Origin: a virus
Lineage: Duplodnaviria > Heunggongvirae > Uroviricota > Caudoviricetes
Strand: one strand, 5' to 3'
DNA: 64,000 nt
IMG/VR virus record: IMGVR_UViG_3300031760_000004
Span: 92,294-156,293 of that record
Part shown: positions 3,822 to 61,202 of the stretch, one piece after another
Numbering within the stretch: the first letter of the stretch is position 1
Layout of the letters: every line of letters starts with the position of its first letter
The notes under the pieces: generated by a model
Databases searched by the model: none
Seen by the model: only the letters and a program-made list of their open reading frames with translations
What the model was told of the DNA's origin: nothing
Position numbers and translations under genes: made by a program

Positions 3822-4238
3822 ATGGACAAGCAGAATCCGTTTATCGAACAGCCGTCGGATTCACCAGAGTCCGAGTCAGACGTGGCGAAAAAGAAGTCAA
3901 AGCGGTACTCGCTCACGTGCTACGAGGATTCGGAGTCGTATGAGCCTGGACTTAGGACACTGTCCGAGTTCGAGGACGATCCACATTATCCGTCAATCGG
4001 GTATTGCGCCAAGAGCAAGGCCATTGACTACTGCCACGATCTTCTGATGGCCGTCACGGACATGAGGTTCAACCTGTTCGACGAGCTTAAGAAGATGGCG
4101 AACGAAATCAACGACACGATTGTGGAGGAGTCGAAAGGCAAGTGCGCCGACGTGCCTCCGCTGTCCACGTACAACCTGCCGTTGTCCATCGTCAACCTTC
4201 TGCTCGACAAGTACAACCTGGAGCTTGAGGAGCACTGA
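3822..4238 (+). CDS. hypothetical protein
   Basis: GGAGGAG RBS. Confidence 0.7.
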   Translation: MDKQNPFIEQPSDSPESESDVAKKKSKRYSLTCYEDSESYEPGLRTLSEFEDDPHYPSIGYCAKSKAIDYCHDLLMAVTDMRFNLFDELKKMANEINDTIVEESKGKCADVPPLSTYNLPLSIVNLLLDKYNLELEEH

Positions 4239-4242
4239 TGCC

Positions 4243-4725
4243 ATGAAAAAACCTGGTACGGTGACGCTATGCCCGCTGACAGGAAAGGACAGGATCCTGT
4301 ATGGAAACTGCGAGAGCTGCCAGCATTTCAGCCATTACTCGTTTCCGGGAAGACTGCCGGCGTGTTTTATTTCTGGAAATGCCTGCCCGATCAAGGGAAG
4401 GGGTTCGTATTCCGCTATTGCGAAATCCACCATTGACGCAGGCATTTTACAGTTAGCGCGGGAAGACAACCCGTACGACACGCTGTACTACAAGGACATG
4501 TCCGACACCGTCAGGAGCGTGCTGTATACTCTGACGGTGCGCGAACGCCAGGTGCTTTGGCTCAGGTTCGGGTTCTACCACGCTCCGATGACACGTGACA
4601 GGATTGGAAATCTTTTTCACGTGACGAGCGAAAGAATAAGGATGATAGAGGACAAGGCGTTGAGAAAGTTGAGGCACAATAATAGGATGAAAAGGCTCAG
4701 GGAGGCGGTTGAATGGGAATACTAG
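4243..4725 (+). CDS. sigma70 region-4 (HTH) domain protein with Cys-rich N-terminus
   Basis: LTVRERQVLWLRFG..MTRDRIGNLFHVTSERIRMIEDKALRKLRH resembles RpoD region 4; no regions 2/3. Confidence 0.85.
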   Translation: MKKPGTVTLCPLTGKDRILYGNCESCQHFSHYSFPGRLPACFISGNACPIKGRGSYSAIAKSTIDAGILQLAREDNPYDTLYYKDMSDTVRSVLYTLTVRERQVLWLRFGFYHAPMTRDRIGNLFHVTSERIRMIEDKALRKLRHNNRMKRLREAVEWEY

Positions 4726-44520: not shown

Positions 44521-44718
44521 ATGGTAAAGACAGGTGTTGTTGACGGTGTCGTGAAGACAGCGTCCGCTGACAACGAGGGTGACGCGGTCGGGTCCGCGGC
44601 CAAGTGCATCGCAGCCGCCAGGGAGGCAGTGTCCGGCCTGTCGGAGGTCAGGTCATCCGCCGAGAAGGCAAGGGACGAGGCGCGCAAGTCGGCGGCCGAA
44701 GCCGCCAGGGGCCGTTAG
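44521..44718 (+). CDS. small Ala-rich protein
   Basis: GGAGG RBS; contains VKTA. Confidence 0.55.
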   Translation: MVKTGVVDGVVKTASADNEGDAVGSAAKCIAAAREAVSGLSEVRSSAEKARDEARKSAAEAARGR

Positions 44719-44720
44719 CC

Positions 44721-47405
44721 ATGGCGACCCAGAACAATCCGTTCGGAGGCGTCGATTCCTGGGGCGCCAGGGCCGACGCCTACAAGTACCCGAACCCGTT
44801 CTGCGACATCGCGTCGGTGTACCTGCCGACCAATCTCAACGACGCGTTCGAGTGGATGGAGTTTCTGATGCTCACGATGCCGCCTTTCATGGCGGTCGTC
44901 AACCGCGTGGTCAGCTACTTCCTCACCGAGATAGAGGTCAACGACGTCTCCGACGACGTCCGGGACAACTACCGGGAGGTGTTCGACGACCAGCTGCATC
45001 TCGTGCAGAAGCTCCAGGACATCGGAAAGGACTACTTCTGCTTCTCCGGGGACACGCTTGTCCACACTTCAGATGGGCTGGCCCGCATGGACGACCTCGC
45101 CAGGCTTGGCAAGCCGGTGGACGTGTGCGGCATAGACGGCAGGTGGCACAAGGCCGTGTTCAAGTCCTTCGGCGTCCAGAAGACGGTCGAGCTCGAGTTC
45201 GGAAACGGGCGCAAGGTGAGGACCACGCCGTCGCACCAGTGGTGGGTGGACGCCGGCGACGACGGGGACGGCCTGTCTAGGGTCCGGACCGACGGCCTCA
45301 AGTACTGGTTCAAGGTGCCGGTTAAGGACGTCCCGCGCCCGGAGAAGGACAGGGACTACGACCGAGGGGTTCTCCACGGCATGGCCCTGTCCTCCGGCGG
45401 CAACCCCGTCAAGGCCAAGAAATGCGTCCTGGACTGGTACTCCGACCACATAGGCGTAGAACCGCAGGACTGCATGCTCGTCCCGCCGGCGCCCGAGAAG
45501 TCGAGGTCGTACTGGTACGGTGTGTTCACCGGAATGGCCGAGACGGCCGGGTACATGCAGCCGCGCAAGCACTGCATGTTCATCTCACATCCGGACCTGT
45601 CGGTGCTCGAGCGTCTCAAGGAGGGGTTCGAGTCGGTCGGTCTTGCGGCAAGGTCGGTGTCCAGGCGCAGGATATGGAACGGCGAGGTCAGGTACTACAT
45701 GCCGTTCTCCTGCCGCCACCTGTCCGAGGACGACTTCATGTTCGAGGAGACCGTGGAGAAGTTCAGGGCGATGATGGCCGACGCCCCGGCCCCCAGGTAC
45801 TACACCGGCGTCAGGCGGTCCCCGGAGCCTCCACGCGAGGAGGAGGTGTTCTGCTGCGAGGAGCCCGAGACGCACACGTTCACGCTCGCCGGCGGAATCG
45901 TCACCGGAAACTGCTACGGCAACAGCTTCGTGTCTCTGAACCTTCCGTTCGAGCGTTATCTGAAGTGCCCGGACTGCAGCACCGAGATCCACATATCCAA
46001 GCTCAAGTACGACTTCAAGGCCGACACCGGAAGGTTCATGTGCGAGTGCCCGAAGTGCAAGAGGGGCAAGGTGGAGTTCGAGCGCATAGACCGGCGCCTC
46101 AGGGACACGGCCAAGATAAACGTCATACGGTGGAACCCCAAGCGCATAAGGCTCAAGGTACATCCGATAACCGGCGAGATCAAGTACTACTACAAGCTCG
46201 AGGAGAAGTTCGTGCAGCGGGTCAGGGAGGGCAACCCGTTCTACATCAACACAACCCAGTGGGGCTTCATCGAGACGTGCTGCGGCGACAAGGCGCGCAA
46301 GAACTCCACGGAGTGCCTCTTCGAGTTCGACGAGGGCCAGATCTACCACATGCGTGACACCGTGTTCGCCGGCCTCCAGGACAAGATCAAGGGCTGGGCG
46401 ATACCCCCGCTCCTGCCGTACTTCAAGCTGGCGTACTACATCCAGCTGATGCGCCGGTATGACGAGGCGATAGCCCTCGACTTCATCATGCCGTTCCGGA
46501 TCCTGTACCCGCAGGGCCAGGCCCCGGGCGGCCAGGACGCCCTCACCATGGTGTCCATGCAGACGTTCATCTCGGCCATGAGCCAGATGATCGAGAAGAA
46601 GCGGGCCAACATGACTGCCATCGAGGTGGCCCCGTTCGCGATCGGATACGAGCTCATCGGCGGCGAGGCCAAGCAGCTGGCGCCGAAAGAGAGCATCCAG
46701 CAGGCGGAGCAGGAGCTTCTCAACGCCATGGGGTTCCCGCAGGAGCTCTTCGCCGGCACCCTCTCGCTTCAGGCGGCGCCTGTCGCGCTGAGGCTGTTCG
46801 AGCGCGAGTGGAACCCGCTCGTCGACAACATGAACTCGATTCTGCAGTGGATCTCCGACCAGGTCGCCCGCTACTTCATGTGGGACAAGGCGTCCGTCAG
46901 GTTCACCCCGATCACGCTCGCCGACGACATCGAGAAGAAGGGCCTCCAGATGCAGGCCGCAGCAGGCCAGGACATCTCCAAGCAGACCGCGTACCGCGCC
47001 ATGGGCATCGACTACCTCAAGGAGCAGGAGCGCGTCATCAAGGAGCAGCAGGACGTCCAGAAGATGCAGGAGAAGGCCATGGCCGAGGCGCAGGCCCAGC
47101 AGGCGAACGGAGCCATGGGCGGCGGCGATGGCGGCGGAGCCGAAGGCGGCGGGGAGTCCGGCATGTCCGGTCCCGGCGGCGATGTCGGCGCCACACCTGG
47201 CGACGTCTTCCAGCAGGCCCAGGAGATCGCCAGGCAGCTCATCGCGGCCAACAACCCGGCCCATACAAGGCAGACGCTCGCGCAGGTCAAGAACACCAAC
47301 CCGACTCTGTGGGCCATGGTCAAGGGCCAGCTCCAGGAGCAGAGGCAGCAGCTATCGTCCGAAGGCAGGCAGATGCTCGTCCAGCAGATGCAGCAGGAAG
47401 GATGA
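44721..47405 (+). CDS. putative portal protein with intein and Zn-ribbon insertion
   Basis: spliced junction DIGKDYF|CYGNSF resembles the portal 'yGNa' motif; CPDC..CPKC insert; Gln/Gly-rich tail. Confidence 0.55.
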   Translation: MATQNNPFGGVDSWGARADAYKYPNPFCDIASVYLPTNLNDAFEWMEFLMLTMPPFMAVVNRVVSYFLTEIEVNDVSDDVRDNYREVFDDQLHLVQKLQDIGKDYFCFSGDTLVHTSDGLARMDDLARLGKPVDVCGIDGRWHKAVFKSFGVQKTVELEFGNGRKVRTTPSHQWWVDAGDDGDGLSRVRTDGLKYWFKVPVKDVPRPEKDRDYDRGVLHGMALSSGGNPVKAKKCVLDWYSDHIGVEPQDCMLVPPAPEKSRSYWYGVFTGMAETAGYMQPRKHCMFISHPDLSVLERLKEGFESVGLAARSVSRRRIWNGEVRYYMPFSCRHLSEDDFMFEETVEKFRAMMADAPAPRYYTGVRRSPEPPREEEVFCCEEPETHTFTLAGGIVTGNCYGNSFVSLNLPFERYLKCPDCSTEIHISKLKYDFKADTGRFMCECPKCKRGKVEFERIDRRLRDTAKINVIRWNPKRIRLKVHPITGEIKYYYKLEEKFVQRVREGNPFYINTTQWGFIETCCGDKARKNSTECLFEFDEGQIYHMRDTVFAGLQDKIKGWAIPPLLPYFKLAYYIQLMRRYDEAIALDFIMPFRILYPQGQAPGGQDALTMVSMQTFISAMSQMIEKKRANMTAIEVAPFAIGYELIGGEAKQLAPKESIQQAEQELLNAMGFPQELFAGTLSLQAAPVALRLFEREWNPLVDNMNSILQWISDQVARYFMWDKASVRFTPITLADDIEKKGLQMQAAAGQDISKQTAYRAMGIDYLKEQERVIKEQQDVQKMQEKAMAEAQAQQANGAMGGGDGGGAEGGGESGMSGPGGDVGATPGDVFQQAQEIARQLIAANNPAHTRQTLAQVKNTNPTLWAMVKGQLQEQRQQLSSEGRQMLVQQMQQEG
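45039..45911 (+). mobile_element. intein (291 aa) with degenerate LAGLIDADG endonuclease
   Basis: block A CFSGDTLVHT, block B TTPSHQWWV, block F/G EEVFCCEEPETHTFTLAGGIVTGN, +1 Cys. Confidence 0.92.
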
Positions 47406-50157: not shown

Positions 50158-50516
50158 GGGATTTCAGAGGACTTTTGAAGATGGCGTTCTTCGGCCAGCC
50201 GGAACAGCAGACCGTCGGCCAGTTCATGAACGCGTGGAACGCGAACCTGAACGCGAACCCTTCCATAAGGCACGACGCCTTCCAGCGCATCAACAGCGCC
50301 GGGCTCGACGTAAAGCAGCCGGCGTCGAGGATACCGTACGTGCTCGGCGGCGGTCTCGTTGGGCGTACCGCGGCGTCGTATCTAGGCGCCAATCCGTTCT
50401 GGAAGGGCGTCGCGACCATAGGCGGGGCCATGTACGGCAACCACATGTACAACAAGAACCACCCCGACCCCAGGATGGAGCCAGTAGCGCCAGGACTTGT
50501 CAGGAGGGGTTTCTAG
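50154..50516 (+). CDS. putative virion protein with MRDFRGLLKMA leader and Gly-rich helices
   Basis: leader shared with 60495; LGGGLVG and IGGAMYG. Confidence 0.65.
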   Translation: MRDFRGLLKMAFFGQPEQQTVGQFMNAWNANLNANPSIRHDAFQRINSAGLDVKQPASRIPYVLGGGLVGRTAASYLGANPFWKGVATIGGAMYGNHMYNKNHPDPRMEPVAPGLVRRGF

Positions 50517-50517
50517 C

Positions 50518-51834
50518 ATGACAGCGTACGAACATGGCTTCATGAGCAAGTGCGCCGAATACGGCATAGGCCCGTTCTACGCGGGGCGCATGCTGAAAAT
50601 TGCGCAGCAGCCTGATCCGTTTGGGTGGGATGAGGAGTTTGACCCTGATCTTTATGACGAAGACTCGCCTGAGGCTATACGTGAACGATGGGTTGAAGAA
50701 CAGATAGCTAAAAATCCGAAACTATACAGTAATTTAGGCCCGGCAAAGCAACGAGCCTTCTGGCGCAGAGAATACGACACCACCCAGCGTAAGCCAGGAA
50801 CTTACGAAGGCGGTGTAAGGACCATGGATGAAAATGGCAACCCTGTTGAAATAAGCCCAGAGGACCAGAAGATGGTTGACGCCGCCAGACATGTGCGGGA
50901 ACTTATGAGCGGTGCGAGCAGTCGACTACCTACCCAGCCATCCGTTCAGCCGCAGGCACAGACATTTGTCCAGCAGCCTGCACAGCCGGCGTACAACGAA
51001 CGCGTCATGGACGACTTCGCCGGATACGAGGGCCAGGTCCACGACGTGGAGCGCGTTCCGACGCACATCAACAACGCTGTCCAGCCGCCTAAGACCACTC
51101 CTCCTGTTCCTCCAGCGCCACCTCCTCCTCCTCCTGCACCCCCTCCCGCGCCACCTCCGGCTCCTGCGCCAGCACCTACTGCCGCACCGGTCCAGACCCC
51201 TTCACAGCAGCGTGACCAGATGTGGGCCGGCTTGAACGAGCAGCAGAAGAACTCGTTCAGGACGTGGGCCCAGAAGGACGGGCGCGGAAAGACGTTCGGC
51301 GCGATGTTCCGAGGCGCCGACGGCAAAATAGACCAGGCCGCCGCGAACAAGTTCCTTAAGGACAATCCGAATTTCCTGACCGGCACCGATGCCGACAGGG
51401 ATGCGATTCTAAAGCAAAGATACGGGCAGCTAAACCAGCAGCAGGCCGACGCCTTCCACAACAGCCAGGAGTACAAGGCGTACAGGCAGTCCGCAGCGGC
51501 CAGGCAGCAGGCTGCTAGGGACCGCGCCGCCAAGACTTCGTTCAGGACTCCGACTCCGAACGGGTGGGCCGAGGGCAAGGACTCGAGCGGAAACTCGTAC
51601 CGCGTGCACCAGGAGGACGCCGCTGCGGCGGCGAAGTGGCTTGCCGAGATAGACAGGGCCAATGCGGCGGCCAAAGGCAATACGCAGCCACCGAATGCCG
51701 GAACGGCCACGGTGACGCGCAGGTACGGCAACCCGGCGCCGAAGAAGATCACCAAGATCGAGGATCGTGGCGGCGACCCTGGCATGAGGACGTTCAAGCA
51801 GCCGGTCAGGTACGGCTATCATTACAGAGGTTGA
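50518..51834 (+). CDS. putative virion protein with HG..A..GIGP..M.K.A leader and poly-Pro linker
   Basis: leader aligns with 62764; PPVPPAPPPPPPAPPPAPPPAPAPAP. Confidence 0.7.
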   Translation: MTAYEHGFMSKCAEYGIGPFYAGRMLKIAQQPDPFGWDEEFDPDLYDEDSPEAIRERWVEEQIAKNPKLYSNLGPAKQRAFWRREYDTTQRKPGTYEGGVRTMDENGNPVEISPEDQKMVDAARHVRELMSGASSRLPTQPSVQPQAQTFVQQPAQPAYNERVMDDFAGYEGQVHDVERVPTHINNAVQPPKTTPPVPPAPPPPPPAPPPAPPPAPAPAPTAAPVQTPSQQRDQMWAGLNEQQKNSFRTWAQKDGRGKTFGAMFRGADGKIDQAAANKFLKDNPNFLTGTDADRDAILKQRYGQLNQQQADAFHNSQEYKAYRQSAAARQQAARDRAAKTSFRTPTPNGWAEGKDSSGNSYRVHQEDAAAAAKWLAEIDRANAAAKGNTQPPNAGTATVTRRYGNPAPKKITKIEDRGGDPGMRTFKQPVRYGYHYRG

Positions 51835-51840
51835 TGAGAC

Positions 51841-54800
51841 ATGGCCGAAGAAGACAAGGTCCCGGACTTCCTGCGCGAGTTTGACGACGCCAAGTCGGCC
51901 CGCCGGAACATCTACGACAACACGCTTGAGGCGATGAGGAAGCGCTTCCCCATTGAGGACGACAACTACCGCCTCGAGCTTAACGACCTCCATTACGACG
52001 GGCCTCTGGAGTACTCCCTCGCCGAGCAGAAGAAGGCGCTTCTAAACAACCGCAATCTCCGTACCAACCTGGTTGGCACGTGGCGGCTCGTTGATAAGAA
52101 GACGGGAAACGTCGTCGATGAGCGCAAGGACTCCGTGATGCAGGTGCCGTACTGGACAGACCGCGGCACGATCATCAACAACGGCTCCGAGTACACGGTC
52201 ATCTCCCAGTCGAGGTTGCGTCCCGGCGTGTACGCCCGCAGGAAGTCCAACGGGGAGCTCGAGGCCCAGTTCAACATCAAGCCCGGTACTGGCCGCGCCT
52301 TCCACATAGGCCTGCAGCCCGAGACCGGCGTCATGACGCTCCAGACGGGGCAGGGCTCGATGCCGCTGTACCAGATACTGAGGGGGCTTGGAGTAGACAA
52401 CAAGGACATAGTCAAGTACTGGGGCGCCGACGTTGCGGCGGCAAACGCGCAGAAGGCCGACGCCCAGGCCTGGAACAAGCTGTACCGGAGGATGGCCGGC
52501 TACAAGGCCGTTCCAAACGCCACGGAGGCGGACAAGATCCAGTTCGTCAAGGACGCCGTGTCGAAGTACGAGGTCGACCCAGAGGTCGTCGAGCGCACCA
52601 TGGGGCTCAGGAACGTGTCGACTGTGACGCCGGAGCTGCTTCTCAGGGCGTCGCAGAAGGTTTTGAACGTGTCCCGCGGCGACGAGAAGCCGGACAACCG
52701 CGACAACCCGAGGTTCAGCAAGTTCTACGGGGTGGAGGACTACTTCAAGGAGCGTGTCGAGAAGAACGCCGGCCGCCTGGCGAACACCTTGCTTTACAAG
52801 GCCCGCAGGAACGGCAGCCTGAAGGGAATACAGCGCAACGCTCTCAATCCGTGGGTCGACACAATCATAAACGGCTCCGGGCTTGCCATGCCCGGAGAGG
52901 AGGCGAATCCTCTTTCCACCCTGGAGCAGATGTCGCGCATCTCCAAGTTCGGACTTGGCGGCATAGGGTCGAAGGACGCCGTGACCATGGAGGCCCGCGA
53001 CGTCCAGGGTGACTACCTCGGTTTCGTGGATTCCATCCAGGGACCGGAGTCTGAAGCCATCGGTGTCGACGTGCGCGCCGCGTACAAGACGTTCCTCGGC
53101 AAGGACAACAAGCTTTACGGCGAGTTCATCGACAACCAGACTGGCAAGAAGGAGTACGTCGACATCGCCACGGCCTCCGACAGGCTCGTGGCCTTCCCAG
53201 GCCAGGATCCGAACGCCAAGTACGTCATGGCGATCAAGGACGGCATACCGCAGCGCGTTCCGCGTGACGAGGTGAGATACACGGTCCCGTCGTACGCCCA
53301 CATGGTCGCCTCCAACACCAACATGAACCCGATGCCGACCGGCGTTCAGGCCGGCAGGCAGTTCTACGGGTCGAAGTTCTGGTCTCAGTATCTGCCGCAG
53401 GCGAAGGGCGAGACGCCGCTTGTGGACACCCTGATGCCGGACGGCAAGCTCACCTGGCGAGAGTACTACGGCCGCAAGGTGGGGACGCTCAGCTCTGATG
53501 TCGACGGCGTGGTCACCAAGGTGGACGACGACAAGGTCGTCATCAAGGGCAATGACGGCAAGACGTACACCAGGGAGCTCACAAAGAACGTACCGTTCAA
53601 CCGCCTTAGCCAGATAAGCTACTTCCCGGCCGTGGAGGTTGGACAATCGGTGAAGGCCGGCGACATGCTGGCCCACTCGAACTACACCGACAGGAAGACC
53701 GGCGCCATCAACATGGGGCAGAACCTGCATGTGGCCATAATCCCGAACGGAGGTTCGTTCGAGGACGCATACGTGATCAGCGAGGCGGCGGCAAAGAGGA
53801 TGGCGACAGACCGGCTGTACAGCTTCGACCACGAGACCAGGAACGGCGTCACCATAGGCAAGAACAAGTTCATTTCGGCGTATCCATCGAAGTTCACGAA
53901 GGAGCAGGTCGAGACGCTTGACGACAACGGGATCGTAAAGCCGGGAACGATTCTTCACAGGGGCGACCCCATCGTGCTGTCTCTCGGCCCGAAGATGCTC
54001 TCGTCGCAGGACAAGGCCCTCGGAAAGCTTTCAAAGGCTCTCAGAAACTCCTACACCGACCGTTCGGAGGTGTGGGAGCACGACTACGAGGGGAAGGTCG
54101 TCGACACGGCCGTGACTTCCAAGGGGGCCAAGGTTAACGTGTCGGCGCAGCCGCCGGTCCGCGTCGGAGACAAGCTGTCCCCGATGGCCGGCATCAAGGG
54201 CGTCGTGGGCCAGATCATCCCGGACGACCAGATGCCAAGGGACGCCGTGACGAACCAGCCGTACGACATGCTCATGAACACCATGGGCTTCCTGTCCCGC
54301 GTTGCGCCGAACCAGATCATCGAGATGAACCTGGCCAAGGTTGCCAAGAAGACCGGAAAGCAGATCCGGATTCCGCAGCTTCCGCCTCCCGAGGGATGGT
54401 ACAGGTGGGCGCAGGCCCAGATGAAGGCCGCCGGCGTTCCCGAGACGGCGGACGTGTTCGACCCGGTCACCGGTCGTACCATGAAGGGCATCGGCGACGG
54501 GTACATGTACACGATGGCGTTCCACCACCTTGCCGAGAAGAAGGCCTCCGCGGTGGGTGCCGACGGGTCGTACACGCAGGACGAGCAGCCGTCGAAGGGC
54601 GGCTTCTCCGGAGGCAAGAAGACCTCCGGAATGGACCTCTGGGCCATGCTGGCCCACAATGTGCCGGATGTCATAAAGGATTCCCAGGCCATACGTGGAA
54701 CCAGGAACGACCAGTACTGGCGCGCCCTGCAGCTCGGTCTTCCGACTCCGGAGCCCGAGGAGCCGTTCATCTACAAGAAGTTCCTGAACACTCTCAGGGC

Positions 54801-56226
54801 CGGCGGCGTAAACGTCACCGAGAAGGGCGCCATCACCAAGATCATGCCTCAGACCGACAAGGACGTCGACCAGCTTGCGCAGGGACGCGTCATTACGTCG
54901 GCCGACATGGTCGACTCAGATTTCGAACCCGTCAAGGGCGGCCTTTTCGACCTTGGCAAGACAGGCGGGATGGGCGGCAACCAGTGGTCCATGATACAGC
55001 TCCCGGAGCCGGTTCCGAACCCGATCATGGAGGAGCCTGTCAGGCGCCTTCTCGGCCTTACAACATCCAAGATGGAGGACATACTGGCTGGCCGCGAGAA
55101 GCTCGACGGGAAGACCGGAGGCCAGGCGCTCAAGGATGCGCTGTCCAAGGTGGACGTGGACAGGCGCATAGCCGAGTCGAAGCGCGGTATAACCACGCTG
55201 CGCGGCCAGAAGCGCGACGACGCCGTGAAGGTCTACAGGTACCTAACCGCCATGAAGGAGCAGGGCCTGAAGCCGCATGACTGGATGGTGTCCAAGGTGC
55301 CGGTGATCCCGCCGGCGTTCAGGCCTGTGTCGAAGATGGGCGATGTCGCGCTTGTCTCCGACATGAACGAGCTCTACAAGGACATACTCGAGAACGCCAA
55401 GAACTTCGAGGAGCTCAGGAAGGACGTGTCCGACGACGGCTTGGCCGACGAGCGCCTGAACATCTACAACTCGGTGAAGGCGGCGTACGGCCTTGGCGAG
55501 CCGATCACCCCGGAGAACGCCGCGAAGGGCGTGAAAGGGGCCATGCGGCAGGTGATAGGGTCGAGGCCCAAGTTCGGGATGTTCCAGAACAAGGTGCTGT
55601 CCAAGGCTGTTGGAGGTGTGTCGCGTGGCGTCATCTCGCCGGACCTCAACCTGGACATGGACCAGTGCGGGATCCCAGAGGTCATGGCGTGGCCGATGTA
55701 CAAGCCGTACGTCATGCGGGAGCTTGTCAGGAACGGCTACCCGTCTGTCACGGCCGTCAAGATGATAGCCGACAGGACGGACACGGCAAGGCACGTTCTC
55801 GAGAAGGTCATGTCTGAGAGGCCCGTCATACTCGATCGCGCCCCCACATGGCACAAGTACAACTTCATGGCGTTCAAGCCGTTCCTGACCGATGGCGACA
55901 CCATACGCGTGTCACCGCTGATCGTCAGCGGGTTCAACGCCGACTTCGACGGAGACCAGATGAACGCCCATGTCCCGTCGTCGCAGAAGGCGGTGCAGCA
56001 GGCGTACGAGAAGATGCTTCCGTCAAGCAACCTCACGTCGATGACGGACCTCAAGTCGCCGAGGCACACCCCGTCCAAGGAGCAGATCTTCGGCCTGTAC
56101 GCCCTCACGAAGGGCATGGACACGACAAAGCCCGTCAAGGTTTTCAACAGCGTCTCGGAGGCCAAGCAGGCCTACGCCAGGGGCGAGATCGGCCCTAACG
56201 ACCCGATCGAGATTCTCGGGAGGTAG
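51841..56226 (+). CDS. rpoBC: DNA-directed RNA polymerase, beta subunit fused to N-terminal half of beta'
   Basis: beta motifs GTIINNGSEY, NPLS..RISKFGLGG, SFEDAY, GDKLSPMAGIKG, HHLAEK; beta' motifs VPVIPPAFRP, DRAPTWH, NADFDGDQM. Confidence 0.95.
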   Translation: MAEEDKVPDFLREFDDAKSARRNIYDNTLEAMRKRFPIEDDNYRLELNDLHYDGPLEYSLAEQKKALLNNRNLRTNLVGTWRLVDKKTGNVVDERKDSVMQVPYWTDRGTIINNGSEYTVISQSRLRPGVYARRKSNGELEAQFNIKPGTGRAFHIGLQPETGVMTLQTGQGSMPLYQILRGLGVDNKDIVKYWGADVAAANAQKADAQAWNKLYRRMAGYKAVPNATEADKIQFVKDAVSKYEVDPEVVERTMGLRNVSTVTPELLLRASQKVLNVSRGDEKPDNRDNPRFSKFYGVEDYFKERVEKNAGRLANTLLYKARRNGSLKGIQRNALNPWVDTIINGSGLAMPGEEANPLSTLEQMSRISKFGLGGIGSKDAVTMEARDVQGDYLGFVDSIQGPESEAIGVDVRAAYKTFLGKDNKLYGEFIDNQTGKKEYVDIATASDRLVAFPGQDPNAKYVMAIKDGIPQRVPRDEVRYTVPSYAHMVASNTNMNPMPTGVQAGRQFYGSKFWSQYLPQAKGETPLVDTLMPDGKLTWREYYGRKVGTLSSDVDGVVTKVDDDKVVIKGNDGKTYTRELTKNVPFNRLSQISYFPAVEVGQSVKAGDMLAHSNYTDRKTGAINMGQNLHVAIIPNGGSFEDAYVISEAAAKRMATDRLYSFDHETRNGVTIGKNKFISAYPSKFTKEQVETLDDNGIVKPGTILHRGDPIVLSLGPKMLSSQDKALGKLSKALRNSYTDRSEVWEHDYEGKVVDTAVTSKGAKVNVSAQPPVRVGDKLSPMAGIKGVVGQIIPDDQMPRDAVTNQPYDMLMNTMGFLSRVAPNQIIEMNLAKVAKKTGKQIRIPQLPPPEGWYRWAQAQMKAAGVPETADVFDPVTGRTMKGIGDGYMYTMAFHHLAEKKASAVGADGSYTQDEQPSKGGFSGGKKTSGMDLWAMLAHNVPDVIKDSQAIRGTRNDQYWRALQLGLPTPEPEEPFIYKKFLNTLRAGGVNVTEKGAITKIMPQTDKDVDQLAQGRVITSADMVDSDFEPVKGGLFDLGKTGGMGGNQWSMIQLPEPVPNPIMEEPVRRLLGLTTSKMEDILAGREKLDGKTGGQALKDALSKVDVDRRIAESKRGITTLRGQKRDDAVKVYRYLTAMKEQGLKPHDWMVSKVPVIPPAFRPVSKMGDVALVSDMNELYKDILENAKNFEELRKDVSDDGLADERLNIYNSVKAAYGLGEPITPENAAKGVKGAMRQVIGSRPKFGMFQNKVLSKAVGGVSRGVISPDLNLDMDQCGIPEVMAWPMYKPYVMRELVRNGYPSVTAVKMIADRTDTARHVLEKVMSERPVILDRAPTWHKYNFMAFKPFLTDGDTIRVSPLIVSGFNADFDGDQMNAHVPSSQKAVQQAYEKMLPSSNLTSMTDLKSPRHTPSKEQIFGLYALTKGMDTTKPVKVFNSVSEAKQAYARGEIGPNDPIEILGR

Positions 56227-56228
56227 CC

Positions 56229-57533
56229 ATGAGAAACTTTAGTTATGTTGGTCTTCTGAAGCTGGCAGGCCCGTCGTGGAAGGACAAGGCAAGCGCCAGT
56301 GTTCCTGGAGCTAAGAAGGTAGTCGCGCAGCAAAAACACGATTCCGAATACAGGCGTGCAAACCCTTCTGCCATGGGATCTCTCGCCCAACAAAAGGCAT
56401 GGATTCGGCAACAAGGCCAGAAAGCTCTTTCAAGGCAGACTCCGGAGGTGCAGGCAAAATTCTGGGATGACGCTCGTAAATATCAGGCCAATGCCGCGAG
56501 ATTCAGAGCGGCGGCAGGGGCTTTCATGCCTGGTCTTGGACTTATTGGTGCCTCTGGAATGATGGGAACTGGAGATACAATTGCCTCAAGAATTGAGGGT
56601 AAAGACTGGCTTGACAGCACCAAGGACGGTGCAAGGTCTGCATTGATGACGTACGCGGGAGGGAAAGCAGCAGATACCGGCTTAAGACATGCAGTTGGGT
56701 TAGCAAAGCGTTTTATACCTCGTTTTCGTAAGTTTGCGCTTAGACTTAATGCCAGAGACCCGTATCACAATAGCTTAAAGACAAAGGTAACAAACTATGA
56801 CATTCCAGTTAGAGAACCGGCGGCCCAAGGTGACATGTATCTGTCACATGCCGCTGCTCAGGGTCGGCTTCCTCAGGCTCAAACGTCAGCGCATGCCAAG
56901 TTTAACACCGCACAGCAGTATATAAGCGGCGAGGATTCAGTTATGCCCTCGCTTGGGCTTACGTCAGGTAAAAGGGTCACGCATTATGGCAGCGGGTACG
57001 CAAATGGGCATGGTTCGTTTTCTGACAACAGCATACCTGTAAGATATTATTATGACAGTTCTGTACTGAAAAAACCCAGAACGGTCATATTCCATACGAA
57101 TGATGCGTGGACGCCAACGTATGAGGGAGTACGCAGAGAGTATGGGAACTTAGCTGACTCAGCAGTACGTGAACGAATGTATTCCGATCTTTTCTCCAGA
57201 TCTAAACAACTATCCCCGAATATATCTGCCAAGGACGCTGTAAGACTGAATAAGGCCGGCATACTTGAGGGAGATGCTGGAAGAGTGTTCGAAGTTAAAC
57301 CGTACAGCGATCTCGGCTTAAGAGACATACGTGCTGCGTCTATAGGGACAAACGGCAATCTATCTGAGGCTGGTGTCGCAAGGATGGAGGAGCTGCTAGG
57401 GGACGCTGGAATACCATATTACTTCACAAGAGAGCCAGGGAACTTTAGAATCCCCGGGATGAAGTACCCAGAGTTTGTTTTGAGCCCTGAAGAGATGGTG
57501 CAACATTTTGCTCCTAACATAACCGGCTTATAG
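56229..57533 (+). CDS. hypothetical protein with MRNFSYVGLLKLA leader; lower GC
   Basis: leader similar to 59795; Gly-rich hydrophobic segment; visibly more AT-rich DNA than neighbours. Confidence 0.7.
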   Translation: MRNFSYVGLLKLAGPSWKDKASASVPGAKKVVAQQKHDSEYRRANPSAMGSLAQQKAWIRQQGQKALSRQTPEVQAKFWDDARKYQANAARFRAAAGAFMPGLGLIGASGMMGTGDTIASRIEGKDWLDSTKDGARSALMTYAGGKAADTGLRHAVGLAKRFIPRFRKFALRLNARDPYHNSLKTKVTNYDIPVREPAAQGDMYLSHAAAQGRLPQAQTSAHAKFNTAQQYISGEDSVMPSLGLTSGKRVTHYGSGYANGHGSFSDNSIPVRYYYDSSVLKKPRTVIFHTNDAWTPTYEGVRREYGNLADSAVRERMYSDLFSRSKQLSPNISAKDAVRLNKAGILEGDAGRVFEVKPYSDLGLRDIRAASIGTNGNLSEAGVARMEELLGDAGIPYYFTREPGNFRIPGMKYPEFVLSPEEMVQHFAPNITGL

Positions 57534-57562
57534 CAAAAGAGGTTGTTGAGCAAGGACTAGTC

Positions 57563-57910
57563 ATGAGAGACACATCAAAGGACAGGAAGTTCTTCGTCAA
57601 GATGGACATGCACCGTGAGGTTGTCATATCCGTCATGGCTCCCGACGAGGATTGTGCAATGGATATGGCCGCATCTGTCGTTGACGAGGCCGTAAGGAAT
57701 GTATGCACTTTTTGCAAGAGCGCCAGCTTCCAGGATTCGGCAACTCTGGGTGAGGAGCAGCCGTTCATAGAGTTGTTCAAGGCCCGCAGCTTCAGATATC
57801 CGCAGCTCGCGAAGCAGGAGGTAGCCAATCCCGATGAGTTCAAGTCCGGACATACGCAAGAGGAGTGGGACATACTGGAGGAGGCCGCCAAGCTTCCGTC
57901 AAACTACTAG
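57563..57910 (+). CDS. hypothetical protein (DpnD/PcfM-like N-terminus)
   Basis: KFFVKMDMHREVVISVMAPDEDCA. Confidence 0.6.
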   Translation: MRDTSKDRKFFVKMDMHREVVISVMAPDEDCAMDMAASVVDEAVRNVCTFCKSASFQDSATLGEEQPFIELFKARSFRYPQLAKQEVANPDEFKSGHTQEEWDILEEAAKLPSNY

Positions 57911-57919
57911 GGTGAACAG

Positions 57920-59782
57920 ATGCCGACGACCATTGGACAGATACTTGTGAACGAGGCGCTCCCGGAGAAGTTCCGGGACTATAATCGCGTTCTCGGGGCC
58001 GACGGGATGGAGGACCTTCTGAAGCGCATCATCCAGGAGGATCCAGACTCGTACCGCGACGTGTCGTACAAGCTGATGCGCATAGGCGCCAAGGCCGCAT
58101 ACGACACCGGCACGACGCTGAAGCTGTCTGATCTTGAGCCGGCCCTTGACAACACCGAGCTGTACCGCAGGCTTGACGCCGCCGAGGACGCCATACGCGG
58201 AGACAGGTCCCTGTCAGACGACCAGAAGCGCGAAAAGCTGTCCGAGCTCTATGACAAGGTGTACTCCGACATCAAGGAGCGCGCCTACGCGTCCGCGGAC
58301 GCCAGGGGCAACGGGTTCGCCATGCAGGTCAAGTCGAAGGCCCGCGGAAACAAGGACCAGCTTTCAGCCATGCTGTCCACGCCCGGCGTGTACAAGGACC
58401 CTAGCGGGCGCACTATACCGATGTTCATCAGGCACAGCTACGCCGACGGTCTTTCCCCCGCCGAGTACTGGGCCGGCTCGTACGGCGCCAGAACCGGTGT
58501 TGTCTCGACCAAGTTCGCCACCGCCAATGCAGGGGCCCTTGGAAAGCTGTTCTCGTCCGCCTCCGTGGAGCAGGTCGTTACAGAGGATGACTGCGGCACG
58601 GTTTCGGGAATGCCCGTGAAGACTGACGACAAGGACAACATCGGGTCTGTGCTGGCGGCCGACGCCGGCGGGTACAAGGCCGGGACCGTGATAAGCAAGG
58701 CCGTCATGGCCGACCTCCAGAAGCAGAAGATCGAGGACATCCTCGTCAGGTCGCCTGTGACGTGCAACGCCAAGAACGGCGTGTGCGCCCACTGCGCCGG
58801 CATCAGGGAGAACGGAAAGTTCCCCGAGATAGGGTACAACCTCGGACTTAATTCGGCCTCTGCGCTTGCCGAGAGAGTCGCCCAGGGAAGTCTGAACACA
58901 AAGCATTCGGGAAAGAAACTCGAGGGGTCCAGCCAGTACTCCGGCTTCGATATGCTGAAGTCAATGGTGACCGTCCCGAAGATCTACAAGGACCGTGCGA
59001 CCGTTTCGGAGGTCGACGGACGGGTGGAGAAGATCGAGAAGGCGCCCCAGGGCGGTTCGTATGTCTGGGTGAACGACAGCAAGTTCTACGTTCCGTCCGG
59101 ATACGACGTTCTTGTCAAGGAAGGCGACGAGGTCGAGGCGGGCGACCAGCTGTCCGACGGCGTGGTCAACCCGGCGGACGCCGTGAAGTACAAGGGGATA
59201 GGCGAGGGCCGGCGCTACTTCACGCAGCGCTTCACTCAGGCTTACCGTGACTCAGGCTACAAGGGAAACCGCCGAAACGTGGAGGCTCTTGCCAGGTCAA
59301 TCATCAACAACGTCGTGGTGGACACCGAGGACTCCGAGGGACAGATGCTCCCCGGCGACGAGGTGTCGTACTCCAGGTGGGCGTGGGGCTTCAAGCCCAG
59401 GCAGGGTTCCGTCCAGGCGTCGCCACGGCAGGCCGTCGGCAAGTATCTTGAGCAGCCGGCGCTGCACTACACCATAGGGACAAGGGTGACCAAGAAGGTT
59501 GCGGACGAGCTTGAAAAGTTCAAGGTTCCCAGTGTACTATATAACGAGGCTCCCCCGGGGGTTCACCCGGAGATGAAGTCGATTGTCGAGACGACCGGCC
59601 AGACTGACGACTGGATGGGGCGTCTCGGAACCACGTACATCGGAAAGCGCCTGGTCGAGGACGTCCAGCGCGGCGCCGAGAGTAACTCACAGGGGCTGAA
59701 CCCATACCCGGCGGTGGCCAAGGGGACCACGCTGGGGCAATGGGGGACGCCAGGGCACAGGAACGAGGAGTTCCACTACTAG
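57920..59782 (+). CDS. rpoC: DNA-directed RNA polymerase, C-terminal part of beta'
   Basis: KARGN, YADGLSPAEYW..YGARTG (bridge helix), VTEDDCGT, RSPVTC..GVCAHCAG (Zn), ALAERVAQGSLNTKHSG (trigger loop). Confidence 0.93.
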   Translation: MPTTIGQILVNEALPEKFRDYNRVLGADGMEDLLKRIIQEDPDSYRDVSYKLMRIGAKAAYDTGTTLKLSDLEPALDNTELYRRLDAAEDAIRGDRSLSDDQKREKLSELYDKVYSDIKERAYASADARGNGFAMQVKSKARGNKDQLSAMLSTPGVYKDPSGRTIPMFIRHSYADGLSPAEYWAGSYGARTGVVSTKFATANAGALGKLFSSASVEQVVTEDDCGTVSGMPVKTDDKDNIGSVLAADAGGYKAGTVISKAVMADLQKQKIEDILVRSPVTCNAKNGVCAHCAGIRENGKFPEIGYNLGLNSASALAERVAQGSLNTKHSGKKLEGSSQYSGFDMLKSMVTVPKIYKDRATVSEVDGRVEKIEKAPQGGSYVWVNDSKFYVPSGYDVLVKEGDEVEAGDQLSDGVVNPADAVKYKGIGEGRRYFTQRFTQAYRDSGYKGNRRNVEALARSIINNVVVDTEDSEGQMLPGDEVSYSRWAWGFKPRQGSVQASPRQAVGKYLEQPALHYTIGTRVTKKVADELEKFKVPSVLYNEAPPGVHPEMKSIVETTGQTDDWMGRLGTTYIGKRLVEDVQRGAESNSQGLNPYPAVAKGTTLGQWGTPGHRNEEFHY

Positions 59783-59794
59783 GAGGAATACAAA

Positions 59795-60484
59795 ATGAGG
59801 AAGTTTAGTTCTGTTGGACTCATGAAGATGGCTGGCGTCGGAGACCCTGCAAAAGAAATCGTATCCACTAACGGCGGTTCATCTGGGTACGATACAAGAC
59901 TTTTAGGAGGACTTGGCGGAGCGGCGATTGGTGGAATAGCTGGCGCTCTAATAGACCGCAAGAAGCGCTGGCGTGGTGCTCTTATAGGTGCTCTTGGAGG
60001 AGGAGCAGCCGGATTCGGCCTCGGCGCCCAGCACCGCTACCTCCAGAACAAGTCGCAGCTTGACGCCCAGTCCAGGGAGCGGGCGCGTCTTGCTGCGGCT
60101 AAGGCCGCACGCATCGCCAGAAGGGATGCCATATCCGCACGCCTTGCCGAACATGGCATTACGGACGTAACCCCGTATGGAGACACTGACACCGACATAG
60201 CCGACTACGCAGACAGAGCAGATAACGCAATAGCGAGTCGAGACAACATGTTGATGAATCTTACTGTGGAGGATATCGATTTGCTGTCATCTAACGGCAG
60301 ACGCGTGCTGTTTAGAGCGTATCCTAGCATTGAATCAGCATATTCAAGAGCAGATAAAATCACGCGTGATGCGATTGGACGGGCGAACGCTATCAACCAG
60401 AATACTGACCCGGATAAATATCGGAGCGCCTATGACGAGTTTGTCAAGTTAAATACGTCCCCGCTATCCAGCTTTGTACAGTAG
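59795..60484 (+). CDS. putative virion protein with MRKFSSVGLMKMA leader and glycine zipper
   Basis: GGLGGAAIGGIAGAL...GALIGALGGGAAGFGLGA. Confidence 0.7.
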   Translation: MRKFSSVGLMKMAGVGDPAKEIVSTNGGSSGYDTRLLGGLGGAAIGGIAGALIDRKKRWRGALIGALGGGAAGFGLGAQHRYLQNKSQLDAQSRERARLAAAKAARIARRDAISARLAEHGITDVTPYGDTDTDIADYADRADNAIASRDNMLMNLTVEDIDLLSSNGRRVLFRAYPSIESAYSRADKITRDAIGRANAINQNTDPDKYRSAYDEFVKLNTSPLSSFVQ

Positions 60485-60494
60485 GAGACAGCCT

Positions 60495-61202
60495 ATGAGA
60501 GACTTTAGAGGACTTTTGAAGATGGCCGGAGTCGGCAAGGTCGCGTTCGCCGGAACAGGCGTCAGCCCGCTCTACGGCAACATGCGGATGATGCAGGCGC
60601 CCGAGCTGGCCACGGACGACTACGGCAAGTCGGGACGCATAGAGCTTTCGTTCCCAAACGGTCTGATAATCGACCCTGACAGGCCGTTCACGTCGGTTCA
60701 CTCGTTCATGAGCGGCGTGAAGCACTCCGGGCTGCAGGACCGCATAACGCCCGAGCTCATCGCAAAGCACACGCACATACCGGTGGAGAAGGTGAACGAG
60801 GTCATGGGCCGGATGCCGTACGACAAGCTGGACACGTTCACCGCGGAGCAGCTCGCCAGGCTGGACGCGCCGGCGGCCGAGGCTTTGCAGGCCGCCGTAA
60901 ATGAGCATGTGCAAAGCAGGCAGGCGGAAACGCCGGCGGCCGGCTCCGAAGGCTCACAGCCCCGGCAGCAGGCCAGTCAGCAGGCAAAGGCTGACAGGCA
61001 GTCGGCTGTCGCCCGTCTTGCGGCCGCGTTGAAGAAGGAGCAGCTCAGGTCGTTCGCCAGCAGGCACAAGGTGCCGCTGATGGCCGGCGGGGCCGCGCTT
61101 CTCGGAGGCGGTCTCATGGCCCTTTACATGGCCCTCCGCGCCAGAAACAGGCGTCGCAGGGCCGCCGCCGGCAAGGAAACCGTTGTGCCCGCGACCGTGT
61201 AG
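60495..61202 (+). CDS. putative virion protein with MRDFRGLLKMA leader and C-terminal TM helix
   Basis: leader shared with 50154; LMAGGAALLGGGLMALYMAL followed by RARNRRRR. Confidence 0.7.
   Translation: MRDFRGLLKMAGVGKVAFAGTGVSPLYGNMRMMQAPELATDDYGKSGRIELSFPNGLIIDPDRPFTSVHSFMSGVKHSGLQDRITPELIAKHTHIPVEKVNEVMGRMPYDKLDTFTAEQLARLDAPAAEALQAAVNEHVQSRQAETPAAGSEGSQPRQQASQQAKADRQSAVARLAAALKKEQLRSFASRHKVPLMAGGAALLGGGLMALYMALRARNRRRRAAAGKETVVPATV

Follow-up and report, generated by a model that had tools for sequence, protein, structure and literature searches.

How can a phage encode a bacterial-type RNA polymerase whose subunits begin and end at other places than those of the cellular enzyme? This question is raised by two genes in a 64,000-nucleotide stretch of tailed-phage DNA (below, the window), which corresponds to positions 92294-156293 of an IMG/VR phage record (IMGVR_UViG_3300031760_000004; 162,185 bp) that is rated as complete. 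Public sequencing runs containing the window sequence were nearly all labelled as bovine gut metagenome. An initial annotation, prepared from the DNA letters alone, had proposed that beta is fused to the N-terminal part of beta-prime and that the C-terminal part of beta-prime is carried by a second gene; this layout was borne out by domain scans, by sequence and fold matches to the PDB, and by alignments of the family. The fused 1461-residue protein is called chain 1 and the 620-residue beta-prime-C protein chain 2; together they amount to 2081 residues, and all features located below are on the plus (+) strand of the window. These two genes are the only RNA polymerase set of the phage genome, no second set being detected in the whole 162 kb by tblastn and Pfam scans. 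The reading that we favour, and to which we give a fairly good probability when all its parts are taken together, is that of a phage-owned core enzyme of bacterial type that arose by a fusion followed by one fission, would assemble without alpha, and would be packaged and delivered by the virion.

The gene of chain 1 (51841-56226) encodes a complete beta followed by about the first 40% of beta-prime, according to its open reading frame (ORF), its translation and its matches to Pfam and the PDB. Pfam domains were found in the order Rpb2_3 (residues 353-409), Rpb2_6 (553-920, E 1e-36), Rpb1_1 (1135-1195) and Rpb1_2 (1257-1390, E 1e-24), and in comparisons with the PDB residues 73-987 matched bacterial beta and residues 1085-1461 bacterial beta-prime. 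Because the domains of beta and then those of beta-prime lie in chain 1, both double-psi barrels belong to one polypeptide, which extends through the NADFDGD loop as had been annotated. The beta barrel motif (54166-54201) carries the active-site lysines K778 and K786, both invariant in a 16-sequence family alignment, and the catalytic NADFDGD loop of the beta-prime barrel (residues 1366-1372; 55936-55956) has invariant aspartates; the catalytic residues were in fact all invariant in the family alignments. Chain 1 also contains the clamp helices and terminates about 90 residues beyond NADFDGD.

The point at which beta gives way to beta-prime could be placed closely. The C-terminal motif of beta corresponds to residues 975-996 (54763-54828), and in a structural alignment based on a model of residues 940-1461, residue ~999 was aligned with residue ~20 of E. 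coli beta-prime and the last residue of chain 1 with residue ~553. The junction and the beta-prime-N fold together matched E. coli beta-prime 17-553 with a Z score of 21. This model, with a predicted local distance difference test (pLDDT) value of 70 and values below 50 over its first ~60 residues, served for residue mapping only. As residue ~999 already aligns with position ~20 of beta-prime, there is no linker and the junction falls at ~54830-54840, close to the position (about 54840) from which beta-prime had initially been read. The family alignment, including forms in which the whole enzyme is a single chain, and the fold match led to the same delimitation of a linker-less junction region (54763-54840).

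Two further segments of chain 1 depart from the cellular subunits. The N-terminal zinc ribbon of beta-prime is replaced by a short Gly-rich loop (residues 1033-1049; 54937-54987), which occupies the place of the ribbon and is free of cysteines in every aligned relative; chain 1 as a whole has one cysteine only. The deletion of this zinc-binding domain, as proposed earlier, was thus borne out, and of the two zinc sites of beta-prime the first is absent and the second is present with four cysteines. The other segment is the equivalent of rifampicin-resistance cluster I of beta (residues 356-366; 52906-52938), the divergence of which had also been pointed out: it could be aligned with Thermus beta 385-458, with many substitutions. 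Several known rifampicin contact residues differ in chain 1, among them what we take to be the equivalent of His526 in E. coli numbering. The polymerase is probably insensitive to rifampicin.

Chain 2 is encoded at 57920-59782, its gene starting 1693 nt past the stop of the chain 1 gene. It displays the Pfam domains Rpb1_4 and Rpb1_5 and matches residues 579-1092 of a 1188-residue beta-prime chain of the PDB. Its AlphaFold model (pLDDT 81) resembles bacterial beta-prime across nearly its full length, and each of the top 50 Foldseek matches was a bacterial beta-prime chain or a model of one, with template modelling (TM) scores of 0.67-0.76 by query. The elements that the initial annotation had assigned to this downstream gene were all recovered by alignment with bacterial beta-prime. 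The bridge helix (residues 179-211; 58454-58552) appears in the model as a long helix at 180-215, and the trigger-loop segment with its conserved histidine (residues ~315-331; 58862-58912) as a flexible loop of low confidence at 327-337. Chain 2 has exactly four cysteines (Cys225, Cys282, Cys289 and Cys292; 58586-58801), aligning with the ligands of the second zinc site of beta-prime, and these columns are conserved in bacterial beta-prime as well as in the majority of relatives. The C-terminal module of beta-prime is likewise part of chain 2. The predicted retention of the second zinc site is a new point of this analysis. Taken together, the two chains would supply every catalytic element of the bacterial core enzyme in 2081 residues.

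The fusion or the split could in principle be an artefact of assembly or sequencing, or the two genes could be decaying remnants of a captured bacterial rpoB-rpoC pair. Contigs from four public runs were compared over window positions 51500-60000. The region is indeed hard to assemble: in each of the four runs the contigs break off at 55932-55961, at a shared catalytic motif, where word depth in three of the four runs was about 20- to 100-fold above that of neighbouring bins. Assemblies collapse at this place because the DNA of the catalytic loop is common to other organisms in the samples. The fusion point is nevertheless crossed without any indel by an independent 86-kb contig, about 96% identical, which was obtained from a run of a different study (X2) and spans 51500-55961; the contig of run X1, probably the source sample, was identical to the window. 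A frameshift or a stop at the junction, for which the initial annotation had left room, was accordingly not found. Moreover, neither frame is interrupted in hundreds of contigs of 28-91% identity, and the ends of the two genes coincide in them; together with the invariance of all catalytic residues this speaks against an artefact or decay, as does the position of the family in a clade distinct from the bacterial beta-prime sequences sampled. We regard the chance of an artefact or of a remnant as negligible.

The family is large. A word-index search retrieved at least 510 clusters of proteins fused in this way; many have proteins of 1456-1476 residues, encoded on contigs measuring 140-206 kb, and others contain inteins. 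In IMG/VR, at least 537 loci with relatives were detected. When chain 2 was used in an exhaustive HMMER search, 1208 representatives reached an E value of 1e-30 or better. For the best 150 of these 1208, E was always below 1e-124, and the match almost always started within the first few residues or, where interrupted by an intein, reached the C-terminal end; they are therefore stand-alone beta-prime-C proteins that share the boundaries of chain 2. Inteins (LAGLIDADG, Hint) were seen in both chains of many relatives (for instance at loci L063, L066 and L078), with recurrent sites just past NADFDGD, near the bridge helix and in the trigger loop; the copies in the window are intein-free.

The closest named counterparts are found in cultured phages, namely in Salmonella phage Arash, with chains gp206 of 1525 and gp216 of 606 residues (GenBank OQ632216.1), and in the Vibrio phages D69, D148 and D181, the chains of D69 measuring 1527 and 609 residues. 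They possess the same two chains, colinear over 97-99% at about 30% identity, and share with the present phage the split column, a portal gene upstream and a position in the same clade of both trees described below. In GenBank records these chains are labelled 'beta', 'beta-prime' or hypothetical, and the Arash paper makes no mention of gp206 being a fusion (PMC10585845). The two genes of Arash are, however, 4.8 kb apart with nine genes between them, as compared with 1.7 kb in the window and 2 nt in a sister strain, and Arash has a sigma-like protein (gp10) and a helicase (gp217), neither of which was found here.

Longer relatives of chain 2 were also detected, proteins of 1985-2075 residues that contain beta and the entire beta-prime in one chain. 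When layouts were counted in the best 80 of the at least 537 IMG/VR loci, single chains accounted for 46 of the 80 and two genes located 0.9-4 kb apart for 22; at the remaining loci the sequence ended too early or no second gene lay within 10 kb. The single-chain forms (about 1985-2075 residues, e.g. P0213-P0220), which come from uncultured phages, belong to the same family and resemble our two chains in having a linker-less junction, a lost first zinc ribbon and a preserved second zinc site. They differ in being one protein that is continuous through the split column, where in the window the frame stops and begins anew within the loop that precedes the conserved Thr-Thr-x-Gly motif. This column, just ahead of Thr-Thr-x-Gly-Arg/Gln, is the same in the present phage, in Arash and in D69. 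No publication on the single-chain forms was found in the literature.

How often, and in which direction, one layout changed into the other was evaluated in two trees. In a tree of the chain 1 region (83 rows, an unrooted FastTree computed on a query-anchored alignment), one change between the single-chain and two-chain states suffices, with a support of 95. In a tree of the chain 2 region rooted on eight bacterial beta-prime sequences, all 22 two-chain sequences were on one side (Shimodaira-Hasegawa-like approximate likelihood ratio test, SH-aLRT, 94) and the single-chain forms branched outside this group. These topologies fit an origin of the layout by one split of an already fused gene. A fusion of rpoB with rpoC would first have produced one gene of about 2050 codons, a state that even now outnumbers the split one in this phage family; a single fission would then have occurred in a surface loop some 90 residues past NADFDGD. 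The single origin of the split, as suggested by both trees, is new here.

The reverse order, in which the two-gene layout is the older one and the single-chain forms are later re-fusions, is in our view quite unlikely. The unrooted 83-row tree would accommodate it, as it merely places the two states on two sides of one branch without giving a direction, and the paraphyly of the single-chain forms in the rooted quick tree depends on basal forks that are weakly supported. The direction of evolution consequently stands on weaker ground than the number of events. On the other hand, rooting with bacterial beta-prime leaves the single-chain forms outside the two-chain group, and an older two-gene layout would require three events (a split, a fusion of beta to the front half, and a re-fusion) instead of two. 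It is also at odds with a present-day insertion in Vibrio phage D181, which splits a gene and does not join two.

In D181 (locus L093, 3423-8937) the fused gene is cut into genes of 514 and 1006 codons, in contrast to D69, in which it is whole. The cut consists of an insert of about 950 bp with a free-standing homing endonuclease and, counting beta-prime-C, leads to a three-chain enzyme. This case shows how such breaks arise.

The preferred order, fusion and then a single fission, can be set against other rearranged polymerases. Jumbo phages of the phiKZ/AR9 type likewise have a two-barrel enzyme, lack alpha and omega, and have a beta-prime divided after the catalytic barrel and ahead of the bridge helix. 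Each has two paralogous sets, with four to five chains per set, and one of the sets is packaged in the virion (PMC7598289, PMC7824862). Their beta is split into two or three chains and never fused to beta-prime, whereas here beta is whole and fused, and there is one set of two chains. The present enzyme is closer to bacterial beta and beta-prime than to these families. Comparison with PHROG profiles was in line with this distinction, matches to the jumbo-phage families having E values of 1e-16 to 1e-20 as opposed to 1e-41 to 1e-62 for the families of unsplit phage beta and beta-prime. Cellular fusions of beta with beta-prime exist in Helicobacter and Wolbachia, and such fusions have been engineered in E. 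coli. In these, as here, the end of beta is joined head-to-tail to the start of beta-prime in one frame; they differ in that beta-prime is whole and alpha and omega are used, whereas in the phage beta-prime is cut at ~553 and accessory genes are lacking.

In cyanobacteria and plastids (gamma or RpoC1, and RpoC2), beta-prime is also split after the NADFDGD barrel and before the bridge helix. The end of chain 1 was aligned with residue ~560 in a model of the Synechococcus gamma chain (617 residues), and residue 51 of chain 2 with residue 35 of a cyanobacterial RpoC2-type chain (8h3v_B). The boundary in the phage lies ~15-60 residues earlier, and cyanobacterial beta is a separate gene; the origin of the phage split is independent of the cyanobacterial and plastid one. 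Finally, the mReC phages, uncultured members of the tailed phages in which the bacterial-type beta and beta-prime branch deeply, were considered as a possible identity for this phage. In the published tables (Weinheimer and Aylward 2020, PMC7481178), beta (~920-1560 residues) and beta-prime (~900-1370 residues) are separate proteins, and the capsid protein is of the T4 type. This identity was rejected in view of the differing gene layout and of the lack of a PF07068 match in the genome.

In cellular polymerases it is the alpha dimer that brings beta and beta-prime together. No match to alpha (PF01000) or omega (PF01192) was obtained in the whole 162,185-bp genome, in searches that were positive for 14 of 14 named control genomes, so that a lack first noticed in the window holds for the complete phage. 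The covalent link between beta and beta-prime would replace the assembly role of the alpha dimer, and this arrangement suggests that it probably substitutes for alpha-driven assembly. The phage polymerase may also use alpha and omega of the host.

As to where the enzyme acts, it would ride in the capsid, enter the cell with the DNA and transcribe the phage genes without the host polymerase. Packaging in the virion is most likely by homology with Arash, in whose purified particles gp206 gave the most spectra of any protein (3516), above the major capsid protein, and gp216 gave 1210 (PMC10585845). The portal gene, located at 44604-47405 by tblastn with Arash gp204 (E 1e-64) and by its PHROG portal family, is just upstream of the polymerase in both phages. 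In a sister clade of about 61% identity (P0071, P0073, P0084; L007 10001-15373), an inorganic pyrophosphatase domain is present at the N-terminus of the chain, and some members add LysM and phage tail-lysozyme domains there. Such domains suit a protein passing the cell wall and therefore point to virion delivery. At L007, no beta-prime-C gene was seen within 10 kb downstream.

Besides the weak basal forks already noted, several observations count against the combined reading. Packaging has been shown just for a homologue of 30% identity, that of Arash. The Arash proteome also lists ribonucleotide reductases, a primase and kinases, and its authors caution that abundant infection-phase proteins may co-purify (PMC10585845). 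No homologue of the sigma-like gp10 was found in the genome by tblastn, BLASTP, Pfam scans for regions 2 and 3 or inspection of the genome ends syntenic with Arash, and the helicase gp217 had no match in the genome either. The sole sigma-related gene, 47 kb distant, encodes a small Cys-rich protein with a region-4-like helix-turn-helix (4243-4725; Pfam Sigma70_r4, E 6e-13; sigma factor family phrog_351, E 2e-14). Lastly, counts of 9-mers in 82 intergenic regions revealed no recurring promoter-like motif, none being present more than five times except for a terminator-like stem.

These points can be confronted with the possibility that the enzyme is real without being a virion protein, and is made after infection for middle and late genes as is the phiKZ-type non-virion polymerase, the host polymerase reading the early ones. 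The many non-structural enzymes in the Arash particle proteome, and the carry-over evoked by its authors, would suit such an enzyme. The same is true of the lack of a second 'late' polymerase, as the single enzyme must serve the late genes if the phage is host-independent. We nevertheless consider this alternative unlikely: the spectral count of gp206 was the highest of the Arash preparation and exceeded even that of the major capsid protein, the polymerase genes are beside the portal gene in both phages, and the LysM and tail-lysozyme fusions of relatives can be understood only if the protein comes into contact with the cell wall while being ejected.

Regarding promoter recognition by the enzyme, the region-4-like protein at 4243-4725 is no more than a candidate for a specificity factor. 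Its likely start is Met42 of ORF 4120-4725, the first 41 codons of which look spurious. A sub-threshold match to sigma region 3 in a 242-residue gene (60474-61202) failed in a pairwise comparison. No RNA dataset was present among the public runs containing the sequence.

The two polymerase genes are separated by DNA that changes from strain to strain. At the end of the chain 1 gene (56210-56231), a ribosome-binding-site-like hexamer GGGAGG within the final codons is followed by the TAG stop (56224-56226), two bases and an ATG. In the window this ATG starts a gene of 434 codons (56229-57533), with a small gene of 115 codons farther on (57563-57910). In run X2 it starts the beta-prime-C gene, a contig joining 56228 directly to 57920 so that the polymerase genes are 2 nt apart. 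A 91%-identical contig has just a 115-codon gene in the gap, in the same place as that of the window. The 115-residue product had no Pfam or PHROG match; its function is unassigned and, as the gene is absent in run X2, it is dispensable. The 434-codon gene is missing from both the X2 strain and the 91%-identical contig. Its GC content at third codon positions (GC3) is 0.45, as against 0.87 for the chain 1 gene and 0.82 for the chain 2 gene, and this foreign composition marks it as a recent arrival. The gap is thus a variable cargo slot, and the 1.7-kb low-GC insert of the window is strain-variable and recent; this strain-level polymorphism of the slot is new here. In the simplest strains the gap amounts to 2 nt, with a shared ribosome-binding-site-like sequence, and cargo genes would later have come and gone there.

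The contents of the slot are diverse. The 434-residue protein could not be attributed to any Pfam or PHROG family, and only two distant homologues were found. Its residues ~170-430, in a low-confidence model, gave weak Atlas structure matches (TM 0.3-0.38 by query) to ADP-ribosyltransferase-like families, namely DUF3626, ART-PolyVal and DarT, some of them fused to Mu-F head proteins. The protein may be an injected effector, a model-based suggestion that is given as a lead only. In four two-gene relatives (L041 14360-15856, L074 15313-16782, L076 7750-9465 and L077 15419-16909) the slot is occupied by a LigD-like gene, coding for a primase-polymerase with a 3'-phosphoesterase (489-571 residues), and elsewhere among two-gene relatives by a gene for an EF-hand protein. 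No homing endonuclease was found among ten slot genes scanned in two-gene relatives.

With regard to earlier knowledge, the initial annotation had allowed for the architecture being already described and common. Common it is, and it is present in GenBank (Arash, D69), but no description of the layout was found in the literature, including the Arash paper, two reviews on jumbo-phage RNA polymerases, the mReC paper and a 2026 jumbo-phage review. The fused-and-split layout is thus apparently undescribed though widespread, and a family very large in metagenomes is missing from the reviews on phage polymerases. To our knowledge, ~2080 residues is close to the smallest bacterial-type core. If the covalent link does the job of alpha in an enzyme of this size, as it may, the minimal needs of assembly and catalysis become directly testable, and cultured members on Salmonella and Vibrio make experiments possible now. 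Close relatives with one, two and three chains also constitute a natural series for the study of how an essential gene can be fragmented with its function kept. A broader proposal, which we put forward tentatively and rate as possible at best, is that these phages represent a third independent phage solution: a minimal capsid-borne polymerase of one or two chains, devoid of alpha and omega, would run the whole programme of the phage independently of the host enzyme, and the fission point would be used as a slot for co-delivered effectors.

Some observations concern the surroundings of the polymerase genes. The gene directly upstream of chain 1 (50497-51834) codes for a 445-residue protein of no family, with a Pro/Ala-rich stretch in its middle, and stops 6 nt ahead of the polymerase start. 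A leader of about 14 residues (Met-Arg-x-Phe ... Gly-Leu-Leu/Met-Lys-x-Ala-Gly) opens three genes in the vicinity of the beta-prime-C gene, at 56229-56270 (that of the 434-residue slot protein), 59795-59836 and 60489-60530. Two of the three have a low GC3 (0.45 and 0.51) and are absent in the run X2 strain, and in two distant homologues the motif is internal. The shared leader could be a targeting or a recombination signal.

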